Of a stretch of DNA of 64,000 bases, positions 30,315-47,355 are shown piece by piece. The stretch's first letter is position 1. Every line of letters begins with the position of its first letter. Below the pieces are notes generated by a model that was given only the letters and a program-made list of their open reading frames with translations, was not told the origin of the DNA and made no database searches. The position numbers and the translations under genes are program-made. Origin of the DNA: Candidatus Parvarchaeota archaeon (GTDB lineage: Archaea > Nanobdellota > Nanobdellia > JAAOXT01); the NCBI GenBank assembly GCA_017609605.1, contig JAFCDO010000003.1, positions 24,470 through 88,469 of the forward strand, in the 5' to 3' direction.

Positions 30315-31321
30315 AGACCCTGCTAAACAAGTACACGAACAGGCCCATCCTGATAATTGACGAACAGTCCAGAGTTCCGTTAATGGGTCACAACGCCTTC
30401 GGAATCATAGACCGTGGGACTAACATGATAGAACTCAGACCGATAAGCGGTTGTAACCTGAACTGCGTTTTCTGCAGCGTGGACGAAGGCAAAAACTCGC
30501 GAACCCGAGTCACTGACTACATGGTAGAAACAAAATATCTTACCAAAGAACTCAAAAAATTATTGGAGTATAAAGGACAAGACACTTACCAAATCTTTGT
30601 ATCCGGGCAGGGCGAACCCTTAACCCACCCAGACATCATCAACCTTATCAAACAAGTTTCAAACATTAAAAACGTTGAAAAAACCATAATCCAAACCAAC
30701 GCAATCCTATTAGACGAAGAACTCCTAGAACAACTAATCCTTGCAGGGCTCACAGGACTAAGCGTATCAATAAACTCTCTCAAACCAGAAACAGCTCGAA
30801 TGATGAGCGGAACCAAAGAATACAACCTCCAAAAAGTGCTTGAAGTAACTGAGCTGGCAGTCAAAAAAAAGGTTAAAGTCATGCTCGCCCCAGTCATTAT
30901 TGACGGGGTGAACTACGACGAAATAGAAGACCTAGTGCTCTACGCTAAAAAAATAGGGGCGCAAATAGGGATGCAAAACTACCTCAAATACAGGTTTGGC
31001 AGACCACTCAAAAAAAAACAAATACCTTTCCCAAAATTTTTCAAAAAACTCGAAGAACTTCAGAAAAAACACGAAATCAAGTTAATCATGACTGCAGAAC
31101 ACTTAGGCATTCACAAATCCAAACAATTACCTAACCCGTTCAAAAAAGGAGAAATAATCCAAACCCGGATAAAAGGACCTGGCAGAATGAAAAACAACGC
31201 CTTAGGCGTGGCCAAAGAAAGATCCATGGAAATATTAGATTGCAAGCCGTCAGTAGGAAAAGTCGTTAAAGCCAGAGTCATAACAAGAAAACATAATCTT
31301 ATAAATGTCAAGAAAGCCTAA
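30311..31321 (+). CDS. radical SAM protein with C-terminal OB/TRAM-like domain
   Basis: CNLNCVFCSVDEG (CxxxCxxC) and GQGEPLTHPD. The C-terminal GEIIQTRIKGPG...VGKVVKARVI is beta-rich. ATGA overlap with the upstream gene. Confidence 0.75.
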   Translation: MKTLLNKYTNRPILIIDEQSRVPLMGHNAFGIIDRGTNMIELRPISGCNLNCVFCSVDEGKNSRTRVTDYMVETKYLTKELKKLLEYKGQDTYQIFVSGQGEPLTHPDIINLIKQVSNIKNVEKTIIQTNAILLDEELLEQLILAGLTGLSVSINSLKPETARMMSGTKEYNLQKVLEVTELAVKKKVKVMLAPVIIDGVNYDEIEDLVLYAKKIGAQIGMQNYLKYRFGRPLKKKQIPFPKFFKKLEELQKKHEIKLIMTAEHLGIHKSKQLPNPFKKGEIIQTRIKGPGRMKNNALGVAKERSMEILDCKPSVGKVVKARVITRKHNLINVKKA

Positions 31322-31331
31322 CAATAAAATC

Positions 31332-32816: not shown

Positions 32817-33526
32817 CCTCCCGCAGAGTTTATGAAATCCTCTTCGGGAATTTTCTCACTGATTACTGGCATAATCATTTGTACGCCATTATTCACGTCT
32901 TCACTTATCTTAAAAACAGCGGGTTCGAACAACCCCCAACTTTCAGGAAGCTTCCTCACCTTAGAAGGAGCCAGGTTAATCACGATGGGCTCCGTGTTAA
33001 AATCAGGGCATTCCATAAAAATCGCTCTTAACTCAAAAACAGGCAACAACAAATCTTTATTCATTTCTTCATCTTCATCCGATTTAGGGCTGGAAGTCCA
33101 GGGCAATGAAGTTCCCCCTAAATTCGTGAAAAAAACGTGGTTATCGGTTATTAATTTCATGCTGGAAGTCGGGCCTATCAAACTTGTTTCGCTAGAAATC
33201 CCGCTTTGACCGCTGATCATGTAACCCGCAAAACAAGTCACCCCATTTAGTTGAGAATAATTTTTAATACGTTTCAAAATTCTTCCCAGATTCGGGTCAG
33301 CGTTGAAGTGAAAAAACTCTTCAATTATGATAACGTCAATATCTTTAATTAAAGCGTCAATGGATTTACCGCCATTAACGGATTCGAACCTGTCATCATC
33401 CCTTTTGGTTTCAGGCATCAACCTATAAAAATCAACTTCTTCTAAATGTTTTTGACCGTAAACTTCGCCGTTCCTTAAAATTTTTTCGGGCTCGTTTAGA
33501 GTGGATATGTATGCAACGCTAACCAT
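32813..33526 (-). CDS. RecA-superfamily (KaiC/RadB-like) protein, C-terminal portion, apparently degenerate
   Basis: Start at MVSVAYISTLNEPEKIL (ATG at 33526). The pattern V.YIS..E.PE.I ... DVIIIEEF (Walker-B-like) ... R..LK.I...S.LNGVT resembles KaiC/RadB ATPase cores. The track's N-terminal 13 aa lie in the region that reads in another frame as the upstream small ORF. Confidence 0.4.
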   Translation of the reverse strand: MVSVAYISTLNEPEKILRNGEVYGQKHLEEVDFYRLMPETKRDDDRFESVNGGKSIDALIKDIDVIIIEEFFHFNADPNLGRILKRIKNYSQLNGVTCFAGYMISGQSGISSETSLIGPTSSMKLITDNHVFFTNLGGTSLPWTSSPKSDEDEEMNKDLLLPVFELRAIFMECPDFNTEPIVINLAPSKVRKLPESWGLFEPAVFKISEDVNNGVQMIMPVISEKIPEEDFINSAGG

Positions 33527-33677
33527 TGCTAACAGCCTTGTCAGCAATCTCTCTAAGCAAGACATCTGGTTTATAATGATTCCAAGAAAATGTTGTGAAA
33601 GAACCTTTCAAAAAGTGCAAAGAGTGCTCGTCAATAAAATCAATACCTGTTTTATAAAATAAATCGTCAATTCCCAT
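33519..33677 (-). CDS. small ORF (52 aa) corresponding to the N-terminal portion of the RecA/KaiC-like fold, Walker A not conserved
   Basis: Own translation: MGIDDLFYKTGIDFIDEHSLHFLKGSFTTFSWNHYKPDVLLREIADKAVSNG*. TGIDFID..L.GS.T mirrors KaiC TGI.GLD..L.GG...GS. SWNHYKPD occupies the position of the GxxGxGKT loop. Overlaps the downstream ATG by 8 nt. Confidence 0.35.
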   Translation of the reverse strand: MGIDDLFYKTGIDFIDEHSLHFLKGSFTTFSWNHYKPDVLLREIADKAVSNG

Positions 33678-33781
33678 TATCGTTTAACCCTATTAATTGA
33701 AGAAATGAAGAAATAGTTTAAAAGCATTGCTGTTTTATTAAACAAACTCTTAAAAAAAATGATTACCTTTAAAAAAGAAAG

Positions 33782-35263
33782 ATGAAGAGCGCGGAAACCC
33801 TATCAAGCGATGAAAGAACAATCCTAAGCAATGCTAAAAACAAAGACACGATCAAAACCCTAACAGAGAAAACAGGATTAAAAGAATCCAAGGTGCGAAG
33901 AGCGGTTGAATGGCTGAAATACAAAGGAATGCTTGACACAACCAAAAAAACCAGAAAAATCGTTAATCTAGGCGCTAACGGCAAACAATACTTAAAAAAA
34001 AGTTTGCCTGAACAAAGATTCCTTGAAGCAGGAGAACACGGCCTAAATAAGGTTAGAGAAAAAGCAGGGTTAAGCGCGGAAGAATTCAATTACTCTTTAG
34101 GATTCCTAAAAAAAGGCAAGGTTATCAGCATAGACAAAGGAATAGTCAAAATCTTGAACAAGAAAAAAATAAAAGAACTTGAAAAAACTCGAAAAACATT
34201 AAAAACCTTAGATAACGTTTACTACTCTTCTTTGAACAAAGAAAAACAAAAAATTGTTGATGCACTGATTAAAAGAAAAGACATTCTCGTCATAAACGAG
34301 GAGTCAGAACAAATAATAACTCTAACCAAAAAAGGTTTGAAAGCCAAGAAAACGGTTGGCCAAAAAAAGTTCATTGAAAAACTAACACCCAATATCATAC
34401 GATCCGGTGAGTGGAAAACCAGTCAGATGAGGGCTTACGACATAAGCGCTCCAGCACCAAAAATTTTTGCGGGAAAAAACCATCCTTACACTTTATTCAT
34501 AGAAGAACTGAAAGAAACTTTGGTCAGCATGGGTTTCGAAGAAATGGAAGGTCCTTTGATCGAAAAATCATTGTACAATTGCGACGCTTTGTTCATGCCC
34601 CAAGACCATAACGCTCGAGGAATACATGACATATTCTTTACCCAATCACCAAAACATTGCAAGACGTTGCCAGATATCAAGAACTTGAAATCCGTTCATC
34701 AGGACGGCTGGACAACTGGTTCCAAAGGATGGGGAATAAAGTTCAGCGAAGAAATGTGCAAAAGATTAGTGTTCCGCTCACAAGGAACAGCTCTTAGCGC
34801 TAGAACAATGATGAACCAGCCAAAAATTCCGGGCAGGTATTTCGCAGTGGCAAAATGCTTCAGACCAGATGTAATAGACTTCAAACACAACATTGAATTC
34901 AACCAAGTTGAAGGAATCGTGCTGGACAAAAACCTTAACCTAAAAACCTTGTTAGGCATGCTGAAAATGTTCGCCGAAAAAGTTGCTAACGCTAAACAAG
35001 TCAAATACGTTCCAGGATATTTCCCTTTCACTGAGCCAAGCGTGGAAATAATGGCAAAAGTGCCTGGCATAGGATGGATAGAGCTCGGAGGCTCAGGAAT
35101 ATTCAGGCCAGAAGTCACTCAACCCCTTGGAATAAAAGTTCCAGTCATAGCTTGGGGCCTGGGTTTGGACAGGTTGTTCATGATAAAAGAAGGAATATCC
35201 GACATCAGGGACCTGTTCACGCAAGACCTTGACTGGCTCAGAAGCAGAGAGGTGAGAAGCTAG
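33782..35263 (+). CDS. pheS: phenylalanyl-tRNA synthetase alpha subunit
   Basis: Class II motifs: FRPDVIDFKHNIEFNQVEG and GYFPFTEPSVEI...GSGIFRPEV. N-terminal winged-helix repeats. Confidence 0.9.
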   Translation: MKSAETLSSDERTILSNAKNKDTIKTLTEKTGLKESKVRRAVEWLKYKGMLDTTKKTRKIVNLGANGKQYLKKSLPEQRFLEAGEHGLNKVREKAGLSAEEFNYSLGFLKKGKVISIDKGIVKILNKKKIKELEKTRKTLKTLDNVYYSSLNKEKQKIVDALIKRKDILVINEESEQIITLTKKGLKAKKTVGQKKFIEKLTPNIIRSGEWKTSQMRAYDISAPAPKIFAGKNHPYTLFIEELKETLVSMGFEEMEGPLIEKSLYNCDALFMPQDHNARGIHDIFFTQSPKHCKTLPDIKNLKSVHQDGWTTGSKGWGIKFSEEMCKRLVFRSQGTALSARTMMNQPKIPGRYFAVAKCFRPDVIDFKHNIEFNQVEGIVLDKNLNLKTLLGMLKMFAEKVANAKQVKYVPGYFPFTEPSVEIMAKVPGIGWIELGGSGIFRPEVTQPLGIKVPVIAWGLGLDRLFMIKEGISDIRDLFTQDLDWLRSREVRS

Positions 35264-35265
35264 AA

Positions 35266-36900
35266 ATGCCGACCATCGAGATAAGCAAAAAAGACTTGGA
35301 ACAACTAATAGGCAAAAAACTGCCTGAAAACAAAGAAGAACTCTTCTTCAAGATTAAAGCAGAAGTGGAAAAAGAAGTGGGCGACACCATAACCCTGGAA
35401 TTAAATGACACTAACCGCGTCGACCTATGGAGCGTGGAAGGAATTGCCCGCGAACTAAAAGGACACTTAGGCGTTGACGAAGGAATAAAAAGGTACAAGG
35501 CAAGAAAATCAAAATATGTCATAAACGCTGGCGAAATCAAAGTAAGACCTTACATTGCGGCGTGCGTGGTCAAAGGAGTTGAACTAAACAACCACATAAT
35601 CAAACAACTAATGCAGCAGCAAGAAAAAATAGACTCTACTTACGGCAGAACGAGAAAAAAAACGTCCATCGGCTTATACAACCTTGATGCACTAACTTTT
35701 CCATTAACCTACGATGAAGCTAGCCAAGACACCGAATTCGTTCCATTAGGGTTCAAACAAAAAATGAGTTTAAAACAAATACTCAAAAGACATCCCAAAG
35801 GCGTGGCCTACGCTCACATCCTAGAAGGAGTGGACAAGCCGCCCTTGTTCACGGACGCGACAGGAAAAATCCTGTCAATGCCCCCAATAATCAATTCCAG
35901 CGAGCTCGGCCAAATCAAGCCAGAGCACACTAACTTGTTAGTGGAAGTCACTGGGACCAATGAAGAAGCAGTGAGAAACGTTCTAACCTTAATAACCACT
36001 TCCTTATTCGACAGGGGGGGAACCTTGTACGACGTGACTATCAAGTACAGCAATAGGAGAAGTATTACTCCAGTCTTCGAAAACACGTCACTACGAGTAA
36101 AACCAGAAGAAATCAACAAAGAACTGGGGCTTGAACTAGAACCTGAAGAAATAGTTGAGATTCTCAGAAAAATGAGGTACAACGCGTTCAGCAGAGGAAA
36201 AATTATAGACGTGCAAGTCTCGAGTTACAGGGTTGACGTTATCCACCCAGTGGACGTCACTGAAGACGTGGCGATAGCTTTCGGTTATGATAAAATAGAG
36301 CCTGAAATGCCCAAAGCGTTCACTGTAGGAGGGGTCAGCAAGAATACCAAGCAGGAAAGACTGCTCCGAAAACTTTTCACGAGCATGGGCTGCCAAGAAA
36401 TCAGGAACATGGTTCTCACAAACACGGAAAAACTATTCGAAAAAATGAACGCGAAAAAAAGCAAGTTCATAGAAATAGAAAACCCTGTGAACGAATCCTA
36501 CACTTGCGCGCGCAACGCCTTACTGCCAGGACTCGTTAACACACTGTCAAAAAACACTCACGCTGAATACCCTCAAAAAATCTTCGAAGTAGGTCCAGTG
36601 ATAAGAACATCATCGAATGAAACGGGTTCGAAAACCAAGACGAGCGCCGGCATGTGCGTGGCGTCCAAAGAAACAAGTTTCAGCGAGATAAAACAGCACT
36701 TGGACTGGTTCATGAAATCTCGAGGAATCAAATACTCGTTGAAACCGTCCAAGAACAAGGCGTTCATAGAAGGTCGCTGCGGAGAAATAATTGTCAAAAA
36801 CAGAAGCGTTGGAATAATTGGGGAAGTGCATCCAGCGGTTCTTAAGAACAATCAATTAAAAATGCCGGTAACTTGCTTTGAAGTGACCAAAAATGGGTAA
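35266..36900 (+). CDS. pheT: phenylalanyl-tRNA synthetase beta subunit
   Basis: MPTIEISKKDLEQLIGKKL (B3/4 N-terminus) and archaeal beta-subunit length. Lies 2 nt after pheS. Confidence 0.9.
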   Translation: MPTIEISKKDLEQLIGKKLPENKEELFFKIKAEVEKEVGDTITLELNDTNRVDLWSVEGIARELKGHLGVDEGIKRYKARKSKYVINAGEIKVRPYIAACVVKGVELNNHIIKQLMQQQEKIDSTYGRTRKKTSIGLYNLDALTFPLTYDEASQDTEFVPLGFKQKMSLKQILKRHPKGVAYAHILEGVDKPPLFTDATGKILSMPPIINSSELGQIKPEHTNLLVEVTGTNEEAVRNVLTLITTSLFDRGGTLYDVTIKYSNRRSITPVFENTSLRVKPEEINKELGLELEPEEIVEILRKMRYNAFSRGKIIDVQVSSYRVDVIHPVDVTEDVAIAFGYDKIEPEMPKAFTVGGVSKNTKQERLLRKLFTSMGCQEIRNMVLTNTEKLFEKMNAKKSKFIEIENPVNESYTCARNALLPGLVNTLSKNTHAEYPQKIFEVGPVIRTSSNETGSKTKTSAGMCVASKETSFSEIKQHLDWFMKSRGIKYSLKPSKNKAFIEGRCGEIIVKNRSVGIIGEVHPAVLKNNQLKMPVTCFEVTKNG

Positions 36901-37297
36901 GAGAAGAGGAAGCAACGCTGAAAGAGAGCTTGCTAAAAAGTTTTATGAAAAAGGTTTCGCGGTCCTGCGCGTAGCTGGAAGCGGTGCCGCCCAATACCCC
37001 ACTCCGGACCTGCTGGTCATGAAAGATGACATGGTTTTGGCTATTGAGTGCAAGATGCGTAAACAACCCTTCATTTATTTGACGGAAGGGGACGTGCAAA
37101 CCCTTAAAGCATTTAGGGATAGGGCGGGCTGCGAAGCGTACTTCGCCATCAAGTTTTTGAAGCACGGCTGGCACTTTTATCCCTTGCAAGAAGTGATTGA
37201 CCAAGGCAAACCCTACAAAATCTTGTTAAAAGAAGCAGGCGCGGCCCTAACAATACATCATTTCGTGAACGGCATGCGACAAAAAAAACTGGTTTAA
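36893..37297 (+). CDS. hjc: Holliday junction resolvase Hjc
   Basis: GSNAERELAKKFYEKGFAVLRVAGSG...PDLLVMKDDMVLAIECKMRK...FAIKFLKHGW matches the Hjc catalytic core (E..D..EXK). Confidence 0.9.
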   Translation: MGKRRGSNAERELAKKFYEKGFAVLRVAGSGAAQYPTPDLLVMKDDMVLAIECKMRKQPFIYLTEGDVQTLKAFRDRAGCEAYFAIKFLKHGWHFYPLQEVIDQGKPYKILLKEAGAALTIHHFVNGMRQKKLV

Positions 37298-37370
37298 GCC
37301 TTTGGTGAGATTTGAACTCACGACCCCCTGCTTACGAGGCAGGTGCTCTAAACCGCTGAGCTACAAAGGC
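37297..37370 (-). tRNA. tRNA-Thr (anticodon CGT)
   Basis: Reverse complement: GCCTTTG TA GCTC AGCGGTTTA GAGC A CCTGC CTCGTAA GCAGG GGGTC GTGAG TTCAAAT CTCAC CAAAGGC T. All stems pair. Confidence 0.9.
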
Positions 37371-37393
37371 GCGTGAACAAAGAATTAGAGCAA

Positions 37394-37406
37394 CGGTTTT
37401 AAAAAC
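37394..37406 (-). promoter_or_regulatory. TATA-box-like element upstream of tRNA-Thr
   Basis: cggttttaaaaac lies 24-36 nt upstream of the tRNA 5' end (37370). Confidence 0.45.
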
Positions 37407-37407
37407 T

Positions 37408-38229
37408 TTATCTGTTCTCTCTACTCAAATAATCACTACCCTCTTTAAGAATATCCCACGCCTTCCTGACAGCGTCAGTTATCCCCTTCTTCACGTTTCT
37501 CTCTCTTTTCTTTTTGTGCTCGCCAATCACTTCAACAATTTTTTCAGCAGATTTCTCTTCTTCAACTTCATCGCTTGTGTCAACATCGGTAAATTCAACC
37601 CCGTCAAGCCCGACCTCGCCAAGATTCTCATTCGCTTCAACCAATGCTTCAAGGTTCTCCGTTATCTCCAATTCCTGGCCAGTCTCCTCAGACCTTTTCT
37701 TTGCTCTTTCATATGACTGTTCGGGAGGCGTTTTCATTCTAATGGCTAAACCTGGTTTTGGAAACAAAAAAGAAAAAGCGCGATAATACCAATTATCCTT
37801 TAATTTAGGGCCAAAATAAGTGATAGCGTCGAACAAGGGGTGGCGCTCCATCAAATAAACAACTTTTGAGGACGCGTTCGCCTTCTCCAGTTTCTTGAAA
37901 ATGTCATCCAAATAACCATTGGTTAAGTCATCAATTGAAATATTCCTCACTTCATTATCGGTCTTTCTGGCACTCCCTAACTCTGGCATTAAGGACAAAA
38001 AATCAAGGAAACCGAAAACAGCCGCGCGTTTCTTGCTCCCGCTAACTAAAAGGCCTCGCTGAACAGTTCCCCAAACCCCGTTGCTAGGAGTCTTAATGTG
38101 ATGAACTTCGTAACCTTTTGTCTCTAACTTTTTCTTCACGATTCTGGCTTGAGTGCTTTTACCACTCGCGTCTAAACCGTAAAGAACGAAAAGATTGTAA
38201 ATGGTGTTGAACCTTATGGATTCAAACAT
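37408..38229 (-). CDS. P-loop kinase-like protein (thymidylate-kinase-like N-terminus) with acidic C-terminal tail
   Basis: LFVLYGLDASGKSTQARIV resembles the Tmk/dNK P-loop (EG.DGSGKST). The start is uncertain (38229, 38268 or 38361). I chose 38229 because TTAAAAA lies about 30 nt upstream. Confidence 0.5.
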   Translation of the reverse strand: MFESIRFNTIYNLFVLYGLDASGKSTQARIVKKKLETKGYEVHHIKTPSNGVWGTVQRGLLVSGSKKRAAVFGFLDFLSLMPELGSARKTDNEVRNISIDDLTNGYLDDIFKKLEKANASSKVVYLMERHPLFDAITYFGPKLKDNWYYRAFSFLFPKPGLAIRMKTPPEQSYERAKKRSEETGQELEITENLEALVEANENLGEVGLDGVEFTDVDTSDEVEEEKSAEKIVEVIGEHKKKRERNVKKGITDAVRKAWDILKEGSDYLSRENR

Positions 38230-38370
38230 GATGCCAATTTTAGATCTACCTCTTTTTAACTCTTTCATAACGAGAGACTTTGCACAAAAAGTCGTTAAGG
38301 AAAGGATTATTGGACATACTTGCCACCCACACGCTTTTCTTAAAAAAACTTCTTTATCCAATTACGTTTA

Positions 38371-39462
38371 ATGCTTGCCATTAAAAGTGTTAAAGGCAAA
38401 ATAATCGGCCTAACCAGAAGAAAAAAAGAATTCTTAGACAAAGAGTATTCTGAGTTCAATCATTTATGCAAATTCTTAACAGAAGCCAATAAACATGGAA
38501 TGGACGAATACTGCGAGTACGGTTTCATTAAAGACAAGTTCAATGTTTATTCATTAACCAAAACCCAAGCAATCCGGAACTGCTCAAAAACGAGAAGAGA
38601 ACAACCACTAACAATACACAACCAATCAGTCAAAATTGAAGTAAACAATAACAAGCTTTCATCGCTATGGGTTCGCATACCTGTTCACGGTGTGTGGGGT
38701 GGAATCTGGCTGCCAGTAAAAACAAGCAAGGACAAAATAGAACTAATCAAAGAATGCAAAACCACAAGCATTAGAATCAAAAAGAAGAAAAATGATTATT
38801 TTATCTCAATCACTATCCAAAAAGAAATCAAACCATTATCATGCTCTAACATCCTTGCAATAGACCTAGGGGAAAAAACCATTGCAACTGTCTGTGGCAC
38901 TGCACACAAAAAACCCCTATTCCTAGGCAAGAACGTAAGAGGAACTCGCAGGCACTACGCACACCTAAGAAAACAGTTAGGAAACAAGAAACTGCTAAAA
39001 ATGATTAGAAAAGTGGGTCAGAAAGAAAAAAACAAAGTGAACTCCACTCTCCACAAAATCAGCAAAATAATCGTTGAAGTAGCCAGCAAAACCAATTCCC
39101 TAATCATCCTCGGAAACTTAAGAAGCATAAGAAACAAAAGCCGAGGAAAACGATTAAACAGAATCGTTAGCAACATGCCCTACCACAAACTAACCCAAAT
39201 GATAAACTACAAAGCCACGTGGAAAGGAATAACCGTCAAGAAAACCTGTGAAGCGTACACTTCAATCACATGCAACAAATGTGATAGCATTGATAAGAAT
39301 AGCAGGAAGGGTCAAGGACTCTTCAAATGCCAAGAATGCGGTTACCAAGTTAACGCTGACTACAACGCCTGCGAAAACATACTCAAAAGGTCGCTAGACT
39401 ACATGTTTGGTGACGGGGCTTTAGCTTACGCCCAAAAGAGCAGCTTGACTGCTCAAGCATAA
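38371..39462 (+). CDS. tnpB: TnpB-like protein (IS200/IS605 OrfB / IS1341-type RNA-guided nuclease family); no TnpA partner
   Basis: RuvC-I ILAIDLGEKTIAT (Asp codon 38863-38865). Zinc finger CNKCDS...CQECGY. RuvC-III VNADYNACENI (Asp codon 39358-39360). The expected RuvC-II hh.EDL block reads LIILGNL (Gly codon 39112-39114). Confidence 0.8.
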   Translation: MLAIKSVKGKIIGLTRRKKEFLDKEYSEFNHLCKFLTEANKHGMDEYCEYGFIKDKFNVYSLTKTQAIRNCSKTRREQPLTIHNQSVKIEVNNNKLSSLWVRIPVHGVWGGIWLPVKTSKDKIELIKECKTTSIRIKKKKNDYFISITIQKEIKPLSCSNILAIDLGEKTIATVCGTAHKKPLFLGKNVRGTRRHYAHLRKQLGNKKLLKMIRKVGQKEKNKVNSTLHKISKIIVEVASKTNSLIILGNLRSIRNKSRGKRLNRIVSNMPYHKLTQMINYKATWKGITVKKTCEAYTSITCNKCDSIDKNSRKGQGLFKCQECGYQVNADYNACENILKRSLDYMFGDGALAYAQKSSLTAQA

Positions 39463-39477
39463 TAAAATCACTTAATT

Positions 39478-40371
39478 ATGCAAAGCCACAACGAGAAAAC
39501 TTATAAAAAACTGGTTTCATTAGTGAAGCCAATGAATGGGAACTACCTCTTCGCAGGTCTGGAATGGAAGAAGAGAGTTGACAAAATAGTTCCGTACATG
39601 ATTCTTAGGAACGGGGGTAAAGATCAAAAAGTCCCTCTGCTCAAAGGAGATAATCTAAGATTCAAGATTCTTAACGAAAAATATTGTTTAGGTTATAACC
39701 ATAATCCTTGTCCTTTCAGCACGCAAATCAAGAAAGGCATGCAATGCTTTAAGTGCAAGCAAATTGATGACCGTCACGCGTGCAAAAAATGCGTTGGTGA
39801 GAGGTGCATGAGTGAGTTAGGAAAGGATTACTGTTTCAATAATGAGTTCGCGGTTTACCTTGCAAGCTTCGGAGACATTCTTAAGGTAGGTGTTAGCAGC
39901 ACTAAAAGAGTGGTTACTAGATGGGTGGAGCAGGGAGCTGACTGCGCGGTTAAAGCTCTGAAAGCGGGTAACGGTTTGGAAGCCAGAAAAATTGAGTCCA
40001 TGATAGCTAAGAAGTTGGGGGTTAAGACTGCTGTGAGGTCCAGCCAAAAAAAAAGTTTAATGCTTAAGGGAGGGCAACCTGAATTAATCGGTTCTGTGCT
40101 CGAAAAAGTTCACGAAATGTTCCCAGACCATGTTTACAGTAAAACAATTCTTAACGTGGACGAGAAAACAGGTTTTGACTTCAACGCTGACGCTTTGGAT
40201 TATGATGAGAAACTTGTTTCCGGAAAGATTCTTGGGGTTAAAGGCTCGTGGATTTTTTTAAAGAACGGGAGGACAAGCTATTCTTTAAACACTAACTTGT
40301 TGAAAGCCAGTTTATTGGGGTTCAGCAAAACTAAAGAAAAACCGACTGTTCAAGCTAGGCTGTTTACCTAA
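39478..40371 (+). CDS. zinc-ribbon protein, DUF2797-like
   Basis: A Cys cluster (CPFS..CFKCKQ...CKKCVGERC) is followed by FAVYLASFGDILKVGVSSTKRVVTRWVEQGA, which resembles the DUF2797 core as I remember it. Confidence 0.45.
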   Translation: MQSHNEKTYKKLVSLVKPMNGNYLFAGLEWKKRVDKIVPYMILRNGGKDQKVPLLKGDNLRFKILNEKYCLGYNHNPCPFSTQIKKGMQCFKCKQIDDRHACKKCVGERCMSELGKDYCFNNEFAVYLASFGDILKVGVSSTKRVVTRWVEQGADCAVKALKAGNGLEARKIESMIAKKLGVKTAVRSSQKKSLMLKGGQPELIGSVLEKVHEMFPDHVYSKTILNVDEKTGFDFNADALDYDEKLVSGKILGVKGSWIFLKNGRTSYSLNTNLLKASLLGFSKTKEKPTVQARLFT

Positions 40372-40395
40372 AAAAAAGAACAGGCAAATTTTTTT

Positions 40396-41052
40396 TTAAC
40401 CAATGATTGTTCCTAAAAAATCCTTGCCTTCCATGAATTTTTGAAGTTCGTCGAGCTTGTGGCCGTTAATGACAACGACTTTCAGCCCTGCTTTCTCGCA
40501 AATCTTTGCAGCCCTTGGCTCGAAAACGAATTCCATTCCCGGGTCGTGCTTGCCGAACCCTGAGCGCTCAGCCACTTCAAAAAATTCTTTCCAACCAATT
40601 TTTCTAAACATTTTGGCATTATCGTGTTCTTTCGGGTTTTTGTCGTAGACGCCGTCCACGTCAGTGAGGTTAACAATGTAATCTGCTTGCACGGTTTTAG
40701 CTATCTCGGCTGCGCTCGCGTCAGTGGTCTGCCCAGTTTTTAGCCCGCCGAAAACCCTCATAGTTTCAACATCGTCTAGAGTATAGCCCACCCCGTTCAG
40801 CCCTGAATAAAGCGTTAATAACATGGCGTTGACGTGCGTGCACATAATGCCCAACAAGTCCCTATCGTCATCGTTGATTCCTAGGTTCTTGGCTGCTTTG
40901 GCGTAAGTTCTGGCGGTCGCTCCTCCACCGCAGACAATCCAGTGGTCTTTAATGTTTTTGGCGAACGCCGTGAACTTTTTGATGTAGTTCACGTCAACGT
41001 TTTTATCCTTAGGCACGAGCAGTGAACCCCCAACTGAAATAACACACTTCAT
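40396..41052 (-). CDS. pyrH: UMP kinase (archaeal type)
   Basis: MKCVISVGGSLLVP, VCGGGATARTY, and the amino-acid-kinase fold block VDGVYDKNPKEH. Confidence 0.85.
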   Translation of the reverse strand: MKCVISVGGSLLVPKDKNVDVNYIKKFTAFAKNIKDHWIVCGGGATARTYAKAAKNLGINDDDRDLLGIMCTHVNAMLLTLYSGLNGVGYTLDDVETMRVFGGLKTGQTTDASAAEIAKTVQADYIVNLTDVDGVYDKNPKEHDNAKMFRKIGWKEFFEVAERSGFGKHDPGMEFVFEPRAAKICEKAGLKVVVINGHKLDELQKFMEGKDFLGTIIG

Positions 41053-41081
41053 TTTAATTCATTACTCACAAAGAAGGGTTT

Positions 41082-42332
41082 TTAACCTTTTCCAAAAAGT
41101 TTCATCATTCCTTCAAAACTCGTTTTTTGCTGTTTTCCAGTCTTCATGTCTCGAACAGTGAACTTTTTTTCTTTCAACTCCTTTTCACCAATTATCAAGA
41201 CAAAAGGGATCCCTTTCTTTGAAACATAATCTAACTGTTTCTTTAAGCTTCTGCCCATCAAATCGGTTTCCACATTCATTCCAGCCTTCCTCATTTTTTG
41301 GGCAAGTCCAACAACTTTTTTGTCAAATTCTGGTTTAACACTCGCCACAAAAACTTTGGTGCTGCTGGCCTGTTTTGACTTGGATTTGAGCAATTCAAAA
41401 ATGGGTTCAATGCCTAAAGAAAAACCTGTTGCGGACACGTCCCTGCCAGATAAAATTTTGATGAGATTATCATACCTTCCGCCACCACCAACACTTACTT
41501 TAATATCCTTACAAGAAGCTTCAAAAACGGGTCCAGTGTAGTAATCCAGTCCACGGGCAAGAGAAACGTCAATAACGTAGTTCTTTACGTTAAAAGATTT
41601 CAAGTAACCGGTAAGTTCTTCCAGTTCTTTAATGCCCTTGCAGCCTCCGAGAATTTTTTTCAATTTTTCCAAAGAGTCCGTGCCGATTAGTCGAATAATT
41701 TTTTTGCAGGATTCTTTGCTTATTCCTCTATCAATTAGTTCTTTTTCCACACCTTTTAACCCCACTTTATCGAGCTTGTCAATTGATCTAAACGCTTCCT
41801 GCCACAATTTTTTAGGGATTCCAGAGTAATCCATCATGTCTGCAAGGATTTTTCTGTTGTTGACGCGCATGATTATGTTCAACCCGAGTTTCTTGTAAAC
41901 CTCAAGGACTGCGGTTATGATTTCAGCGTCAGCCATCATTGAGTTTGAGCCGAAAGAATCGATGTCGAACTGGTAAAACTCGCGGTACCTGCCTTTCTTT
42001 ATTTCTCCGTACCTCCAAGCTTTGCCGTATTGGTAGCGCTTGAAAGGCATTATTAATTGAGGGTTGTTCGCCAGCACTCGCGAAGTCGGAACGGTGAGGT
42101 CAAATCTCAATCCAACTTTTCTTCCTCCTTTGTCTTTGAAAGCGAATAATTCTTTTTTCACGTCTTCCCCGCTCTTAGCTGTTAAGGTTTCCTCGTACTC
42201 TAAAGCGGGGGTGTCTAATGGAGCGAAACCATACTTTGTTAATACTGTTTGAGCTGTTTCGAAAATCTTTTTCCTGACCATCATTTCTTCAGGCAGAAAA
42301 TCCTTCATGCCTTTAACGGTTTGATAGTTCAT
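41082..42332 (-). CDS. hisS: histidyl-tRNA synthetase
   Basis: VKGMKDFLPEE, WRYGEIKKGRYREFYQFDIDSFG, GGGGRYDNL. Confidence 0.95.
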   Translation of the reverse strand: MNYQTVKGMKDFLPEEMMVRKKIFETAQTVLTKYGFAPLDTPALEYEETLTAKSGEDVKKELFAFKDKGGRKVGLRFDLTVPTSRVLANNPQLIMPFKRYQYGKAWRYGEIKKGRYREFYQFDIDSFGSNSMMADAEIITAVLEVYKKLGLNIIMRVNNRKILADMMDYSGIPKKLWQEAFRSIDKLDKVGLKGVEKELIDRGISKESCKKIIRLIGTDSLEKLKKILGGCKGIKELEELTGYLKSFNVKNYVIDVSLARGLDYYTGPVFEASCKDIKVSVGGGGRYDNLIKILSGRDVSATGFSLGIEPIFELLKSKSKQASSTKVFVASVKPEFDKKVVGLAQKMRKAGMNVETDLMGRSLKKQLDYVSKKGIPFVLIIGEKELKEKKFTVRDMKTGKQQKTSFEGMMKLFGKG

Positions 42333-42856
42333 CTTCCAAAACCTCCTTTATAAGCTTCAGCGTTGTAAAAAGGGGCTAGCGCGCAAAACAATGCTTGTTC
42401 GAAAAAATCGGTTCTGGTCACGTTATTTTTTGTCAGCAATCCAATAACCCCTTCTTTTTTTCCAATCCCTTTCCGACCTTCAAGCTTATCAATAACTTCT
42501 CCTAACTCCACTCCTTCTAAAACTCGTGAGACAATGCTGTTAGGCAAGGGAATGGATACAGTGCTTGCAAGACCTGTTTTTTTGCCATCAGTAATTGCAA
42601 CCCAACCTTTCGTGTAATAAACTGTTTGCACTTGAATGATTCCGCCTTCCAGTCCGACCCCGAAACCGTTTTTTTGGTAGGCCATGACCGCCCGGTTAAC
42701 CGCTCCTTGAATGATTTCGTTGTCATTCATTGGCTGGGCGTTGACGCCAGATTCGGTTTTCATTCCTTCCACTTCGATTTGTCCGAAAACTTTTTCAAAA
42801 ACTTTTTTCGCAGCGTTTATCTTGGCTGGATTGGTTGAGCCGACAAAAACCTTCAT
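42329..42856 (-). CDS. inosine/xanthosine triphosphatase (YjjX/DUF84-type NTPase)
   Basis: Start at MKVFVGSTNPAKINAAKKVFEKVFG (ATG at 42856), then ESGVNAQPMNDNEIIQGAVNRA. The track N-terminus runs across tRNA-His. Confidence 0.8.
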   Translation of the reverse strand: MKVFVGSTNPAKINAAKKVFEKVFGQIEVEGMKTESGVNAQPMNDNEIIQGAVNRAVMAYQKNGFGVGLEGGIIQVQTVYYTKGWVAITDGKKTGLASTVSIPLPNSIVSRVLEGVELGEVIDKLEGRKGIGKKEGVIGLLTKNNVTRTDFFEQALFCALAPFYNAEAYKGGFGR

Positions 42857-42903
42857 GCTTAGATATTTGGTCGCACCCATTTTTAAGTTTTTGAGTTTAG
42901 AAA

Positions 42904-42976
42904 GGTCCGGGCCGAGATTCGAACTCGGGTCAACGGGACCACAACCCGCTATCCTAACCACTAGACTACCCAGACC
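42904..42976 (-). tRNA. tRNA-His (anticodon GTG) with genome-encoded G-1
   Basis: Reverse complement: G GTCTGGG TA GTCT AGTGGTTA GGAT A GCGGG TTGTGGT CCCGT TGAC CCGAG TTCGAAT CTCGG CCCGGAC C. The extra 5' G lies opposite C73. TTTATA lies about 30 nt upstream. Confidence 0.85.
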
Positions 42977-43191
42977 AATTATGAACAAAACCCCGCTCTA
43001 CACCTATAAACTTTTCGAGAACGGGTTCAATAAAAGTAAGGCTAGTGAAATCACTGTTGATGAACGCACTCACCGCTTTTCATTGTAATAATAAAAGGTT
43101 GGGAACACGATTTATAAACTTTTTCATTCACTTTCTTCTTTTAAAAAAAAGCAAACATTAAAAGAGAAAAAAATTATTTTTTTCTAATTAA

Positions 43192-43917
43192 ATGAGGGTT
43201 AATGAAGGGTTAAGTCTTTCCCTTAACAAGCTGATTCGCGAAATCAATAGAAGTTGCGAGCTTGAAAAAAATCTTTTACTAATAGAGAATCCTTGCGATG
43301 AAGACAAAAAAATCTTGAAAGAAAAGTTTGAAACCCTGTTCCCACAAACCAAGAAGAGCGTTGCCGAATACGCGTTAGGAGCGCTGCTGGTCATGGACGT
43401 CCTGCCAAGCGAGGGAAAATTGTCCGACAGCGTGAGAAAAACATGGTTTTACGGCGAGTATGAGCCAATGCTGATGAACCAAAGAATAATTACGAGACCG
43501 AAAGAAGCCAGGCTCATCAAATCATATGGTAGGATTTGCAGTCTCTACTCAGTATCCTACGAGCTGCCCGTGAAAATAGCTCAGCATTTCAGAAAAGGAC
43601 ACGATTATTTGCACGACCAATTTAAGGAATCGCTGGAAAGCCATTTCAACGTTTTAATGGTCATGTCAGAGACGCGATTGGATGAGAAAGGTTACGGCCA
43701 GGTTCGGGAAAGAGCTGAGAACAAAGCAGTGTTACTGGGTTTAATGCTACCCTTCTCAAACCATGTTTTGGAACTGTCAAGACTGAGAGAAATACCTTAT
43801 GACGCGATGCGAGCGGTTTACGATTACTGGGAAGACATAAAAGGTTTTGGCATGGAACCAAACAATTTTTATGTTGAAAAAATTATGAGGAAGCTAGGAT
43901 GGAAGCACTGTACTTGA
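43192..43917 (+). CDS. hypothetical protein (241 aa)
   Basis: ORF only, predicted helical. No family recognised. Confidence 0.4.
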   Translation: MRVNEGLSLSLNKLIREINRSCELEKNLLLIENPCDEDKKILKEKFETLFPQTKKSVAEYALGALLVMDVLPSEGKLSDSVRKTWFYGEYEPMLMNQRIITRPKEARLIKSYGRICSLYSVSYELPVKIAQHFRKGHDYLHDQFKESLESHFNVLMVMSETRLDEKGYGQVRERAENKAVLLGLMLPFSNHVLELSRLREIPYDAMRAVYDYWEDIKGFGMEPNNFYVEKIMRKLGWKHCT

Positions 43918-44522
43918 AGGATTGTTATTTGAAAGAATTTGACGCTGAGGTCACTAGCGTGAACGGCGACGAAATAGAGCTTGACAGAACAGCGTTTTAC
44001 CCTGAAAGCGGGGGCCAGCTCTGTGATTTGGGAACTTTGAACGATTACAGAGTCGTGCACGTGAGAAAAGACAAAGGCAGAATCATTCACGAAGTCGAAG
44101 ACCAGCACACCGCGGTCCACGTGTTATCTAAAGTGGTGTGGGAAGACCTTGGAGGAGAAATTAGTGGAGGCCAACTCGGACTTGAAGAATCTAGAGATGA
44201 TTACACGATCCCTGAATTTGACCGCGAAAAACTGGGGCAAGCAGTCAAAAAAGCCAACGTTTTAATCGAGAAAGGAGCGGAAGTGCGCTTCAAATTCATG
44301 CCACGCGAAAGAGCGGATAAGGAACCAGACTTGATTCGCACCAAAGTCAATTTGATACCTTTATTCGTGAAAACCATTCGAGTGGTTAAGATTCAAGGCT
44401 TGGACATGCAGGCGTGCGCTGGAACTCACGTCAAAAACATTAATGAAATCGGAAGAATAGTGATAACTCGCGCGCAAAACAAGGGAAGGAATAATCGCAG
44501 GTTATACTTCACGTTACAATAA
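43899..44522 (+). CDS. alaX: alanyl-tRNA editing protein AlaX
   Basis: MEALYLKDCYLKEFDAEV...DRTAFYPESGGQ, and zinc motifs HTAVHVL and CAGTHV. Confidence 0.75.
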   Translation: MEALYLKDCYLKEFDAEVTSVNGDEIELDRTAFYPESGGQLCDLGTLNDYRVVHVRKDKGRIIHEVEDQHTAVHVLSKVVWEDLGGEISGGQLGLEESRDDYTIPEFDREKLGQAVKKANVLIEKGAEVRFKFMPRERADKEPDLIRTKVNLIPLFVKTIRVVKIQGLDMQACAGTHVKNINEIGRIVITRAQNKGRNNRRLYFTLQ

Positions 44523-44556
44523 AATTTTTTAATAAGAACTGTTGGCATTAAGTGAC

Positions 44557-44931
44557 ATGCCAGTAAGACCAAGAATACAGAGGATTCACGGCAAACTTCA
44601 AGAGCCAGAGGAACTAGACAGGTTTTTGGAAAAAATTATTGCCGAAAACATGGTTGAAGAAGAAGTCAAAAAAACCTTTGAATCTGAAGATCCTGGAAGA
44701 TATGGTGCAGCAATTTTTTATCCGCGAACCATTCTGGAAAAAGATGGCGAAATAATTGAAGTAGTGCCTTGTCAAGATCCAGTGATGGAAAACTTGGATG
44801 GAGAACACGTGGTCTGCGCTTACTCTCAAATAAAAGAATCGCCTTTGGGAGATGTCTGGGAGCTCGTCATAAGAGAAAGAAAGGGCGAGTACATGTTAGA
44901 GATTAAGAACGGACCTTTTATAGACTTTTAA
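44557..44931 (+). CDS. hypothetical protein (124 aa)
   Basis: ORF. I prefer the ATG at 44557 over the TTG at 44542. No family recognised. Confidence 0.4.
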   Translation: MPVRPRIQRIHGKLQEPEELDRFLEKIIAENMVEEEVKKTFESEDPGRYGAAIFYPRTILEKDGEIIEVVPCQDPVMENLDGEHVVCAYSQIKESPLGDVWELVIRERKGEYMLEIKNGPFIDF

Positions 44932-47331
44932 TTAAACGAACTCAACGTCCAATTTCACTTTATCAAGCTTGATTTGACTAGCTTTACCGAAAACGATTTT
45001 CGAGTGAGTAGCTGCTCGAACATCTTCCAACACTTTTTCTAAGAGCGCCCTGTCATTTGAGGAAGCTTGGATAACAATTTTTACAGGTTCTTTCAAACTT
45101 TTTTGAGCATGGTTCTTGAACTTGCGGACAGCGCTGACGATTTCGACGGAGAGGTCACCCACCTTTTCCGCTTCTTTATTTCTTTTACTTGTTTTAGGCC
45201 AATTGGTTAAGTGAATGCTTTCTTCCTTTTCGTGCTTCTTGAAAAAAGTTTGGTACAGTTCTTCGGTCACGTGAGGCATTATCGGGGCGAACAACTTCAA
45301 AACGTCCAATAAAACTTTGTAAAGCGTGTACTGCGCGGCTTTCTTAGAAGACAAGTTCCCGTATAAGCGATACTTGACCATTTCCAAATAATTGCTTGCG
45401 AAAACGCTCCACATAAAATTATCCACGGCGCTTTTATCCTTTGAGAAATCGTAACGTTCAAAACCTTGGGTGGCTGTTTCAATCACTTCCTGCAGTTTGG
45501 ATAAAACCCATTCGTCCACTAGCGTTAATTTGGGTTTCGGGCCTGGCTTGTAGTCTTTCAAATGAGTGATGCAAAATTTTGAAAGATTCCACAGTTTCGT
45601 GATGGTTTTTTTGCCGCTAACCACTTCTTTCTCCCTGTAAGGAGTGTCCTCGCCCAGCTTGGCGCTCGCAGCGAAGAAGCGGAACGCGTCAGCCCCGAAC
45701 TTGTCCAAAACTTTTCGAGGGTTAACTGTGTTTCCTTTGGATTTGCTCATCTTCTTACCCTTCGGGTCGAGCACCCACCCGTTAATCATGGCGGCACCCC
45801 AAGGAATCTTGTCCTCGTGTAAAAGGCCTTTGAGCAGTGTTCTGAAAAGCCAGAAAGTTATTATGTCATGACCATTGCTGCGCAAACTCATTGGGAACAT
45901 TTTACCAAAAAATTTGGGGTCTTCCACCCATTTGAGCGCAATCATGGGGGTCAAAGCAGAAGTGGTCCAAGTGTCCATTACATCTTTTTCTGGAGTGAAG
46001 TCTTTGGAACCGCATTTATGGCAAGGTTTTTTTGGTTGGTCGTTGGTCGGGTCAACAGGGAGTTGCGAGTCTTCAGCTAAGATGACTTCTCCGCACTTGC
46101 AGTACCATACAGGGAAAGGGATGCCGTAAAACCTTTGACGGGATATGCACCAGTCCCACTGAGCGCCTTTAACCCAATTATCATAACGATTCCTCATGTG
46201 AGAAGGATGCCAGTCAAGCTTTTTGCCCGCAGCCAGCAATTCTTTTTTCATGTCAGTGTATTTGATGTACCATTGCTTGCTGTTCAATATCTCGAAAGGG
46301 ATTCCGCAACGCTCATGAACCTTAACGTCATGAACGATTTCCTCCTGGCCAGCTAATAAACCCGCGTCTTTCAAGTCCTGAACAATTCTTTCCCTAGTTT
46401 CTTTAACCTTTAACCCAGCGTACCTTCCAGCTATTTTGGTCATTCTTCCTGACTTGTTGATAGCAATTTTTAATGGCAGCTTGTGCGCCATGTACCATTC
46501 CATGTCATTTTGGTCGCCGAAAGTGCAGCACATAACGACCCCACTTCCTTTTTTTAAGTCAACTCTCTGGTCAGCGAGCACTGGAACACGGAAATCAAAT
46601 AAAGGAACTATCAGTTCCTCGCCAACCAATTTCTTGTTTTTCTTATCGTCAGGGTGGACGAAAACCGCGACGCACGCGGGCAATAGTTCGGGACGAGTGG
46701 TGGAAATAATGATTTTTCGCCCTGAAAGAGTGTGAAATATTATGTCGTTGAAAAACGTTTTTGCTTGCTTGTCCTCAAGCTCGATTTGCGCGACCGCGGT
46801 CTCGCATTTAGGGCACCAAAGAGTCGGTGATTCCTTGCGGTACTCCACGCCTTTTTTGTAAAGGTCTATGAAGCTTCGTTGAGAAACTTTTTGACTCCAA
46901 TCATCAATGGTTCTGTAATGAAGACTCCAGTCCGGAGAGAGCCCGATGCTCATGAAATCCTTAATCAGTTCTTTTTCCGCTTCCTTAGTTTCTTTGAGAC
47001 AGAGCTTGATGAACTTTTGTCGGGACATGCTCGTAGCCCGCACACCCAACTTTTTTTCAACGTATCTCTCAGTGGGTAATCCGTTGTCATCAAAACCGAA
47101 TGGGTAAAAAATGTTGAATCCTTGCATGCGCTTGTACCGCATGACGAAATCAGCTTGCGAGTACCCGAAAGCGTGTCCAATATGCATTTCACCTGAAACT
47201 GTTGGAGGAGGAGTGTCCAAGGAGAAGACAGTTTTTTTGCTCTTAGAATTGAAAGCAAAAATTTTTTGTTTTTTCCAGTACTCCTGCCATTTCTTCTCGG
47301 TTTTTAACGCGTCGTACTTGCCTTCCATCAT
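44932..47331 (-). CDS. valS: valyl-tRNA synthetase
   Basis: TPPPTVSGEMHIGHAF (PPP.VSG.LH.GH), the editing-domain block MCCTFGDQNDMEW, and KMSKSKGN. Confidence 0.9.
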   Translation of the reverse strand: MMEGKYDALKTEKKWQEYWKKQKIFAFNSKSKKTVFSLDTPPPTVSGEMHIGHAFGYSQADFVMRYKRMQGFNIFYPFGFDDNGLPTERYVEKKLGVRATSMSRQKFIKLCLKETKEAEKELIKDFMSIGLSPDWSLHYRTIDDWSQKVSQRSFIDLYKKGVEYRKESPTLWCPKCETAVAQIELEDKQAKTFFNDIIFHTLSGRKIIISTTRPELLPACVAVFVHPDDKKNKKLVGEELIVPLFDFRVPVLADQRVDLKKGSGVVMCCTFGDQNDMEWYMAHKLPLKIAINKSGRMTKIAGRYAGLKVKETRERIVQDLKDAGLLAGQEEIVHDVKVHERCGIPFEILNSKQWYIKYTDMKKELLAAGKKLDWHPSHMRNRYDNWVKGAQWDWCISRQRFYGIPFPVWYCKCGEVILAEDSQLPVDPTNDQPKKPCHKCGSKDFTPEKDVMDTWTTSALTPMIALKWVEDPKFFGKMFPMSLRSNGHDIITFWLFRTLLKGLLHEDKIPWGAAMINGWVLDPKGKKMSKSKGNTVNPRKVLDKFGADAFRFFAASAKLGEDTPYREKEVVSGKKTITKLWNLSKFCITHLKDYKPGPKPKLTLVDEWVLSKLQEVIETATQGFERYDFSKDKSAVDNFMWSVFASNYLEMVKYRLYGNLSSKKAAQYTLYKVLLDVLKLFAPIMPHVTEELYQTFFKKHEKEESIHLTNWPKTSKRNKEAEKVGDLSVEIVSAVRKFKNHAQKSLKEPVKIVIQASSNDRALLEKVLEDVRAATHSKIVFGKASQIKLDKVKLDVEFV

Positions 47332-47355
47332 ATCTTAAAACATATTTGAAAAAAA

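Follow-up and report, generated by a model that had tools for sequence, protein, structure and literature searches.

How should one read a TnpB gene that lacks the canonical glutamate of its RuvC-II motif and stands alone among housekeeping genes: as a transposon nuclease disarmed and put to use by its host, or as the working part of a mobile element? The gene in question (38371–39462, forward strand, as are all features below unless noted) lies in a 64,000-nucleotide stretch of the genome of a Candidatus Parvarchaeota archaeon (assembly GCA_017609605.1, contig JAFCDO010000003.1, positions 24,470 to 88,469), here called the window, whose numbering is used throughout. The evidence described below indicates that the gene probably belongs to a 1.2-kb non-autonomous IS5/IS903-like transposon, whose sole cargo is a RuvC-II-rearranged TnpB–omega-RNA (OMEGA) module and which is moved in trans. 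In this proposal the transposon would comprise 38276–39487.

The open reading frame (ORF) encodes a full-length TnpB of 363 residues, scoring 157 bits on the NCBIfam model guided_TnpB (NF040570; cut-off 100) and 68 bits on the Pfam model Cas12f1-like_TNB (PF07282; cut-off 26). The TnpB hallmarks reported in the initial annotation are borne out by the translation and the family models: RuvC-I, AIDLGEK, with Asp165 (codon 38863–38865); a zinc finger, CNKC…CQEC, with Cys301, Cys304, Cys320, and Cys323 (39271–39339); and RuvC-III, NADYN, with Asp330 (codon 39358–39360). That annotation had also placed a glycine, in the motif LIILGNL (Gly248, codon 39112–39114), where the RuvC-II glutamate belongs. 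Phmmer alignment to Cas12f chains of solved structure agrees: SLIILGNL pairs with GTIQMEDL, and Gly248 stands in the canonical glutamate column. A second glutamate, Glu294 in CEAYTS (codon 39250–39252), had been put forward as a possible substitute.

Homologues make this suggestion concrete. Database searching recovered 267, most of them from DPANN and other archaea. Across 39 aligned homologues (42–65% identity), Gly248, Glu294, Asp165, Asp330, and the four zinc-finger cysteines are all invariant, and the CEAYTS region has the family consensus E-x-x-TS. In 69 additional full-length homologues, drawn from one-genome-per-species contigs, Asp165, Gly248, and Glu294 are each conserved in 69/69, and Asp330 in 68/69. 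Glu294 lies C-terminal to Gly248, at a spacing of 46 residues. No further disabling lesion was found in the window gene: the ORF is full-length and the family-invariant residues are kept.

This pattern has been described before. Altae-Tran et al. (2023, PMC10691335) reported TnpB clades in which the RuvC-II glutamate is replaced by glycine and offset by another glutamate, and likened them to RuvX, whose glutamate is on strand β-5 and not β-4. The largest rearranged TnpB clade is recognized by its RuvC-II glycine, and a "derived" NADxN RuvC-III motif was also reported (PMC10691335); the window protein, with NADYN, fits. Jiang et al. (2023, PMC10530073) found the alternative glutamate "approximately 45 residues away" in all such TnpBs and in Fanzors. 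Fanzors are active nucleases; mutation of this residue in one of them (ApmFNuc E467A) abolished cleavage, and the rearranged TnpB of Thermoplasma volcanium is an active, TAM (target-adjacent motif)-dependent, RNA-guided nuclease without collateral activity (PMC10530073).

An AF2 model of the window protein (pLDDT 87.7, pTM 0.78) adopts the TnpB/Cas12f fold, matching AsCas12f (Foldseek TM 0.72) and also ISDra2 TnpB. Gly248 lies within strand 243–249 and Glu294 directly after strand 289–293, so the published relocation of the glutamate from β-4 to β-5 fits. The predicted catalytic triad is Asp165, Glu294, and Asp330, in which Glu294 after β-5 would stand in for the β-4 residue. With its glycine column, downstream glutamate, and both RuvC aspartates, the protein satisfies the sequence definition of the RuvC-II-rearranged class (RIIr, or TnpB2), an assignment to which family models, alignments, and the AF2 model all point. 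Judged by these comparisons, Gly248 is a family-wide trait of a published class and no lesion; the window TnpB is an intact member of that class, and we infer that it is a nuclease.

Whether the gene is a settled resident is answered by a closely related genome. The DUF2797 protein encoded next to tnpB has a 99%-identical orthologue on a contig (L083) of a Nanoarchaeota metagenome-assembled genome (GCA_018221045.1), where the gene order is the same as in the window: pheS, pheT, hjc, tmk-like, DUF2797, pyrH, and hisS. The two sequences are ~95% identical over 12.8 kb. L083 contains no tnpB, and the gap between its tmk-like gene and DUF2797 is only 81 bp. By BLASTN, window 32312–38275 corresponds to L083 1–5965, and window 39487–44104 to L083 5956–10574; the window has 1,221 bases more than L083 between the tmk-like gene and DUF2797. 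The insertion measures 1,212 bp (38276–39487) and is flanked by a 9-bp target-site duplication (TSD), AYAACGAGA. At the junctions the window reads (C)ATAACGAGA at 38266–38275 and (C)ACAACGAGA at 39487–39496, where L083 has a single CACAACGAGA; the L083 match stops at 38275 and restarts at 39487. The tnpB locus is an inserted transposon and no domesticated resident. Moreover, because filled and empty sites are polymorphic at ~95% identity, the element has moved on a species-level timescale. A natural allele pair of this kind fixes the transposon ends to the base.

The empty site also corrects the apparent crowding of the genes. The next start codon had been placed 15 nt beyond tnpB. That ATG (39478), however, sits in the right terminal inverted repeat (TIR) of the element (ttATGCAAAGC) and lengthens the DUF2797 ORF by 18 codons. 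The start annotated in L083 is equivalent to 39532, so the ORF owes its extra length to the insertion. On the other side, the tmk-like P-loop gene (37408–38361, reverse strand) has an ORF of 317 codons, compared with the 273 residues annotated in L083 (start equivalent to 38229); the 44-codon extension enters the left flank and left end of the transposon.

These findings bear directly on domestication, the possibility raised by the initial annotation. A nuclease-dead TnpB, akin to TldR or Cas12m, might regulate a host gene by RNA-guided binding, for example at the DUF2797 promoter. The canonical RuvC-II glutamate is indeed absent; tnpB stands alone, with housekeeping genes on both sides and no second copy in the window; and the putative guide (described below) overlaps an A/T-rich box upstream of DUF2797. 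Yet the glycine is invariant across a large mobile family and is accompanied by an equally invariant compensating glutamate. Only one position of the triad is changed, and the zinc finger and RuvC-III are intact, whereas the definition of TldRs is a loss that nothing compensates, and in these proteins the zinc finger and RuvC-III are often truncated as well (10.1101/2023.11.30.569447). The authors of that study themselves noted that a relocated glutamate gives spurious "dead" calls (10.1101/2023.11.30.569447). In a genome 95% identical, the flanking genes are the same and the locus is missing, and the guide overlap follows simply from insertion into an 81-bp intergenic region. Nor does the putative guide match any other site in the 64-kb window. 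With the triad complete by way of Glu294, an empty site, unrelated homologue contexts, and an omega-RNA scaffold at its 3' end, the window TnpB departs from TldRs on each count, and we regard a domesticated, nuclease-dead protein as very improbable.

Conserved synteny was considered as a sign of domestication and rejected: the two closest homologues (P0002 and P0005; 67% and 65% identity) have genomic contexts unrelated to that of the window, and tnpB is missing from the sister genome. Several archaeal genomes carry more than one copy of the family. A type V CRISPR-Cas (Cas12) assignment likewise fails, as no CRISPR array was found within 30000–48000.

What kind of transposon is it? In the multi-copy genomes, similarity between paralogues runs from 57–150 nt before the ATG to 16–27 nt beyond the stop codon, and the point at which copy-to-copy similarity stops, in several genomes, is the conserved terminus GTGCAAAGC. 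The right boundary in the DPANN clade is always …(T/A)TGTGCAAAGC, and the left end is its reverse complement, GCTTTGCACA(W)AAAT. The element is therefore bounded by TIRs of the type GGCTTTGCAC…GTGCAAAGCC; in the DPANN clade these are 14–16 bp long, and TIRs were seen in ~20 loci. The left TIR of the window copy, GACTTTGCACAAAAAGT (family consensus GGCTTTGCACAWAAAT), occupies 38276–38292, beginning where L083 similarity ends (38275). The right TIR, ending …TTATGCAAAGCC, occupies 39471–39487, and the L083 match resumes at 39487. Aligned as a pair, the two ends (left, GACTTTGCACAAAAAGT; right, …ACTTAATTATGCAAAGCC) agree at 90% over a 10-nt core. The initial annotation had noted no inverted repeats, since those of the window are imperfect and become evident only against related copies. 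It had added that multiple identical copies with intact ends would show the gene to be simply an active insertion sequence; with its intact ends, the locus essentially answers that description. Between the left terminus and the gene lies a 95-nt non-coding end (38276–38370), comparable with the 57–150 nt that paralogues share upstream of the ATG; an A/T-rich box within it (38340–38348), 23–31 nt before the ATG, may be the promoter.

The TSDs follow the same logic. The left copy, ATAACGAGA, at 38267–38275, was the top-ranking direct repeat, and the right copy, ACAACGAGA, lies at 39488–39496; the L083 empty site holds ACAACGAGA once. Related copies in archaea, for the most part DPANN, again have TIRs and 9-bp TSDs, and the flanking 9-bp repeats vary in sequence between elements. 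When 10 nt were compared on each side, the flanking repeats matched at 7/10 or more positions in 10/11 elements, and 110 cross-pairings between elements never exceeded 7/10. Under the 9-bp model, the repeats of 12 TnpB elements agree at 9/9 positions in six, 8/9 in four, and 7/9 in one; TnpB-less elements with the same TIR reach at least 8/9 in 7/7. An earlier model of a 10–11-bp duplication was replaced, because all elements are accommodated by a TSD of 9 bp if the TIR is extended by a base at either side (usually G…C).

Might the TSD arise from a staggered cut by TnpB itself? TnpB and Cas12 enzymes cut 15–24 nt from the TAM. The duplication begins at the candidate TAM, and TnpB-less elements make the same TSD, so this source was rejected. 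Several other candidates were set aside. No other TnpB copy or standalone TIR in the window rose above chance. A scan of viral contigs for the 15-nt TIR gave 106 single matches, within the range expected by chance and thus uninformative, and a match resembling a left end, 2.7 kb upstream of tnpB in L063, is coincidental, lying within a membrane-protein gene.

Some copies show other arrangements of their ends. The element at L006 2922–4068 has perfect 16-bp TIRs and no TSD, and its flanks share an inverted 7-mer (CTTTTCT / AGAAAAG), which could stem from chance or from two copies having recombined. Other branches of the family (L071 and L082 (Sv326), L063/L069, L027/L030, and others) have right ends of a third type, …GAG(A/T)GTGTCA(A/C), and L071 joins a TIR-type left end to a right end of this third type. 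In L033, a ~690-bp insertion with an IS200-type Y1 HUH tnpA (290–978) splits a TIR-type tnpB, forming nested transposons. Finally, Ca. Fermentimicrarchaeum limneticum (CP058998.1), which has at least four copies, carries a solitary left end of a TnpB element at L009 630–700, consisting of the TIR and ~70 nt with a TTTAAAA box. The gene that this end directly precedes encodes 196 residues and is itself followed by radA; a complete element lies 2.3 kb away, and the solitary end may be a leftover now providing a promoter.

The TIRs lead to a candidate for the mobilizing enzyme. A metagenome scan for GCTTTGCACATAAATT returned 120 loci, just one of them with tnpB; many have inverted TIR pairs and 9-bp TSDs. 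The same TIR bounds MITE-like (miniature inverted-repeat transposable element-like) elements of 109–191 bp, elements of 0.9–1.3 kb with other cargo, and elements of 4.2–5.4 kb (L192, L277, and L166, with a partial example in L230) that carry an ORF of ~370 codons just inside the left end. The product is a DDE transposase, scoring 54–61 bits on Pfam DDE_Tnp_1 and 125–128 bits on the NCBIfam IS5-family model transpos_IS5_2, just under its cut-off of 140; it is 21–27% identical to IS5 transposases of the ISAba10/ISVa2 type. This transposase family is large and archaeal, with 4,180 matches that include Thermoplasmatales and Hermodarchaeota.

IS903, of the same family, has the ends GGCTTTGTTGAATAAATC and 9-bp TSDs. 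A copy of ISAba10 (IS5 family), read directly, has the TIR (A/G)GCTTTGTTGCA(T/C)AAATA and the 9-bp TSD CCTTTCATT. Its TIR may be written GGCTTTGTTGCA.AAAT, the same style of end and the same duplication length as in the window clade. A 9-bp TSD is documented for IS903B (PMC9769513). The window element shows two defining features of a non-autonomous IS5-family (IS903-like) element, a TIR common to DDE-encoding elements and a 9-bp TSD.

Among 82 TnpB loci fetched from genomes and examined, none encodes a transposase in cis. Because neither the window nor the neighbourhood of any tnpB contains a DDE homologue, the clade is likely to be mobilized in trans; and because its TIRs and 9-bp TSDs are of IS5/IS903 style, with a TIR that DDE-encoding elements share, an IS5-family DDE enzyme, and not an IS605 TnpA, is the likely agent. 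The mechanism proposed here is that IS5-family DDE transposase would move in trans a shell with IS5/IS903-style TIRs, GGCTTTGCAC…, and 9-bp TSDs.

The default context for TnpB is different, and deserves consideration on that ground: an ordinary IS200/IS605 element of the IS1341-like, solo-tnpB type, moved as single-stranded DNA by a distant Y1 HUH TnpA. As the initial annotation had said, no tnpA adjoins tnpB. Other branches of the protein family, sisters of the window clade, do have a Y1 HUH TnpA gene directly upstream (in 7–9 loci), together with IS605-like ends that lack TIRs and TSDs: the left boundary carries a conserved TTAAC or TTTAT, and the right end closes with GTAGTTCAC. IS200/IS605 and IS607 elements have neither TIRs nor TSDs, whereas the window element and its clade have both. 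Furthermore, the clade TIR is common to DDE-encoding elements; TIR-type copies mostly form one clade of the neighbour-joining tree, separate from the Y1-linked copies; and the single 9-bp copy in the L083 empty site argues against the repeats being the element's own. Mobility by a Y1 enzyme accordingly merits scarcely any credence for this locus.

Elements that share this TIR are varied, and the TIR family is a general cargo carrier in archaea. L238 4208–5467 (same TIR, 9-bp TSD) encodes a secreted protein of 355 residues that matches no Pfam family; L277 197–4448 encodes an 824-aa repeat-rich secreted protein; and L192 811–5510 has several ORFs of no known kind beside its DDE transposase. L205 449–637 (metagenome contig Ga0315293_10094026) is a 191-bp, TIR-bounded, TSD-flanked, internally deleted TnpB element, which keeps the left end and omega-RNA hairpins B–D and resembles a mobilizable standalone omega-RNA. 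Among loci set aside, the TIR pairs of L213 and L265 have no TSD and no recognizable transposase, and L204 and L284 contain a DDE gene in a TIR geometry unlike that of a simple element.

The right end of the transposon has a second role. A covarying omega-RNA scaffold, which the initial annotation had suggested seeking at the 3' end of the gene, was found there, overlapping the end of the ORF (minimum extent, 39386–39487). It contains four hairpins: A (39390–39399/39405–39414), B (39416–39419/39430–39433), C (39438–39443/39449–39454), and D (39457–39463/39475–39481), followed by a single-stranded tail, AAAGC(C). Hairpins A and B emerged from RNAalifold, applied to an alignment of 17 right-end regions of TIR-type copies, as a 10-bp stem and a GGGC/GCCC stem, and were also seen in single-sequence folds. 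Pairing holds in 94% of the cells of stems A and B, compared with 35–47% in slid controls; 11 pairs show compensatory double changes; and the covariation score is 0.60, compared with 0.10 or less in slid controls, a value reached by 0/500 shuffles. For hairpins C and D, indels spoiled the MAFFT alignment, and evidence comes from per-sequence folding: 13/13 copies folded singly form the same hairpins A–D and then single-stranded AAAGC. The stem sequences of hairpin C are wholly different between copies.

The window scaffold (39390–39481) forms all four hairpins, with a fold z-score of −2.6. Its hairpin D reads GCAU…AUGC, where most others have GCAC…GUGC; this compensated change explains part of the imperfection of the window TIRs. 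On the strength of conserved folding and covariation, a four-hairpin omega-RNA scaffold is predicted whose final base coincides with the right terminus of the transposon. The scaffold would be encoded by the closing ~100 nt of tnpB together with the right end, and the RNA would run on into flanking DNA for its guide.

Since the scaffold stops at the edge of the transposon, the flank itself would serve as guide: the right TSD copy and the sequence downstream. By position directly after the scaffold, its boundaries are probably 39488–39507 (ACAACGAGAAAACTTATAAA). The L083 empty site contains this putative guide unchanged, with CTTTC before it. The same pentamer lies directly 5' of the left TSD in the window (38262–38266) and is the candidate TAM. 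In related elements, TTT occurs no more than 1 nt 5' of the left TSD in 8/12 that bear TnpB and in 0/6 that share the TIR but lack TnpB (Fisher p = 0.011), in the forms CTTTC (three times), TTTTC, CTTTT, ATTTT, and TTTTT (twice); TTT makes up 5% of positions in the local background. These counts suggest that TTTY is the TAM.

The bias is what one would expect if TnpB cuts unoccupied sites (TAM, TSD, and flank), since only TAM-adjacent insertions would profit from homing. At an occupied site, the left TSD copy meets the TIR after 9 nt, and the right copy is preceded by …AAAGCC, which is not a TAM. On this reasoning the element should escape its own TnpB. TnpB probably cuts unoccupied insertion sites that combine a TTTY TAM with a guide match, as in IS605, and recombination of the cut site with an occupied copy would then restore or spread the element.

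Some observations weigh against an active element moved in trans. The 64-kb window contains no DDE transposase homologue, and none lies within 3 kb of any TnpB locus; the named relatives of the transposase come from Thermoplasmatales and Hermodarchaeota, with none demonstrated in a DPANN genome. A single TnpB copy is visible in the window. Its TIRs match at only 9/11 of the first positions, with GA in place of GG at the left end. The two TSD copies differ at 1/9 positions; therefore the element did not insert very recently, and it may have lost the ability to be mobilized. The TAM assignment is based on 12 versus 6 elements.

Much of this would suit a stranded relic, in which TnpB and its omega-RNA are intact and the element, with degenerate TIRs and no cognate transposase, has become immobile and is either decaying or kept by homing. 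Several relatives match at 15–16/16 TIR positions where the window copy does not, and the literature describes little recent mobility for most archaeal tnpB genes. On the other hand, the ORF is full-length and keeps every family-invariant residue; all four RNA hairpins are kept, and the paired substitutions in hairpin D (GCAC to GCAU, offset by GUGC to AUGC) suggest ongoing selection on the RNA. The filled/empty polymorphism indicates movement at a species-level timescale, and the transposase search covered 64 kb of the genome. An immobile relic is unlikely, though it deserves to be kept in mind; a non-autonomous IS5/IS903-like transposon that is moved in trans remains the probable explanation.

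Known systems provide instructive comparisons. The RIIr/TnpB2 proteins, such as TvTnpB of T. volcanium (PMC10691335, PMC10530073), share the glycine at RuvC-II, an alternative glutamate ~45 residues downstream (46 in the window), NADxN, the C4 zinc finger, a length of 340–370 residues, an archaeal host, and an omega-RNA reaching the right end. TvTnpB, however, belongs to an IS605 element with Y1 TnpA and has the TAM NTGAC, whereas the window clade has TIR/TSD shells and the inferred TAM TTTY.

The DDE-associated TnpBs (DDE-2/3/5/6; ISL2, IS1031, and IS630 partners) likewise have symmetrical inverted terminal repeats and a partner of IS5-superfamily type (PMC10691335, PMC13565253). In other IS5/IS630 groups, solo TnpBs whose ends match those of DDE transposons are presumed to be moved in trans (PMC10691335, PMC13565253). 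The window clade differs from the DDE-associated TnpBs in its lack of a cis transposase, its 9-bp TSD, and its IS903/ISAba10-like ends, GGCTTTG…. The duplications made by ISL2, IS1031, and IS630 are of 2–3 bp. IS5 elements of the IS903/ISAba10 type themselves share the TIR start GGCTTTG…CA.AAAT and the 9-bp TSD; the window element has no transposase, and its cargo is TnpB and an omega-RNA.

Fanzor1 and Fanzor2 share the relocated glutamate, and Fanzor1 is also borne by DDE transposons with TIRs and TSDs. Fanzors are found in eukaryotes and giant viruses, are larger, and have nuclear localization signals and introns, whereas the window TnpB is archaeal and has 363 residues. Moreover, the short, fixed TSD of Fanzor elements has been read as part of the TAM or scaffold, whereas the 9-bp TSD here is variable and would form guide nucleotides 1–9. 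The likeness to TldR is limited to TnpB ancestry and a RuvC-II motif that a naive check scores as altered.

The surroundings of the element are ordinary. Its neighbours are pheT, hjc, tRNA-Thr, the tmk-like gene, DUF2797, pyrH, and hisS, and no second tnpB was found in the 64-kb window. Genes around the insertion are tightly packed, as shown by tRNA-Thr(CGU) (37297–37370, reverse strand), which abuts the stop codon of hjc (36893–37297), their coordinates overlapping by 1 nt. An Rfam search of the window found three tRNAs and nothing else. A second difference from L083 lies at 44104/44105, where 69 bp (23 codons, in frame; L083 10575–10643) are missing from an AlaX-like tRNA_SAD gene, just upstream of its HTAVH motif; the product is 207 residues long, compared with 230 in L083.

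For the reading of TnpB genes in general, the lesson is that a missing RuvC-II glutamate is a known, family-wide relocation and no sign of domestication, and motif screens for "dead" TnpBs need to check for E-x2-TS ~45 residues downstream. The locus also documents a compact rearranged-site TnpB of 363 residues with an omega-RNA scaffold of ~100 nt. The protein class is known; the vehicle, with its IS5-like shell, TSD-derived guide, and TAM-adjacent bias, may be the sole addition, and the TnpB-in-DDE-shell arrangement in DPANN archaea may not have been described before in such detail. DDE-borne prokaryotic OMEGA modules are rare and little understood, according to a recent review.

A broader idea can be offered tentatively, as a conjecture that falls short of probable: a mostly DPANN clade of rearranged TnpBs left IS605 and became the sole cargo of IS5/IS903-like elements, in which the TSD supplies the 5' part of the guide and TTTY-adjacent insertions are the ones that survive. 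The filled/empty pair, with its candidate TAM, CTTTC, and 20-nt guide, offers a ready target for biochemical tests, and the locus lends itself to direct tests of both the TSD-as-guide geometry and the insertion bias. If true, the arrangement would be a prokaryotic counterpart of the partnership between Fanzor1 and DDE transposons, with another solution to the TSD problem, and it would mean that OMEGA homing pays off for DDE transposons.

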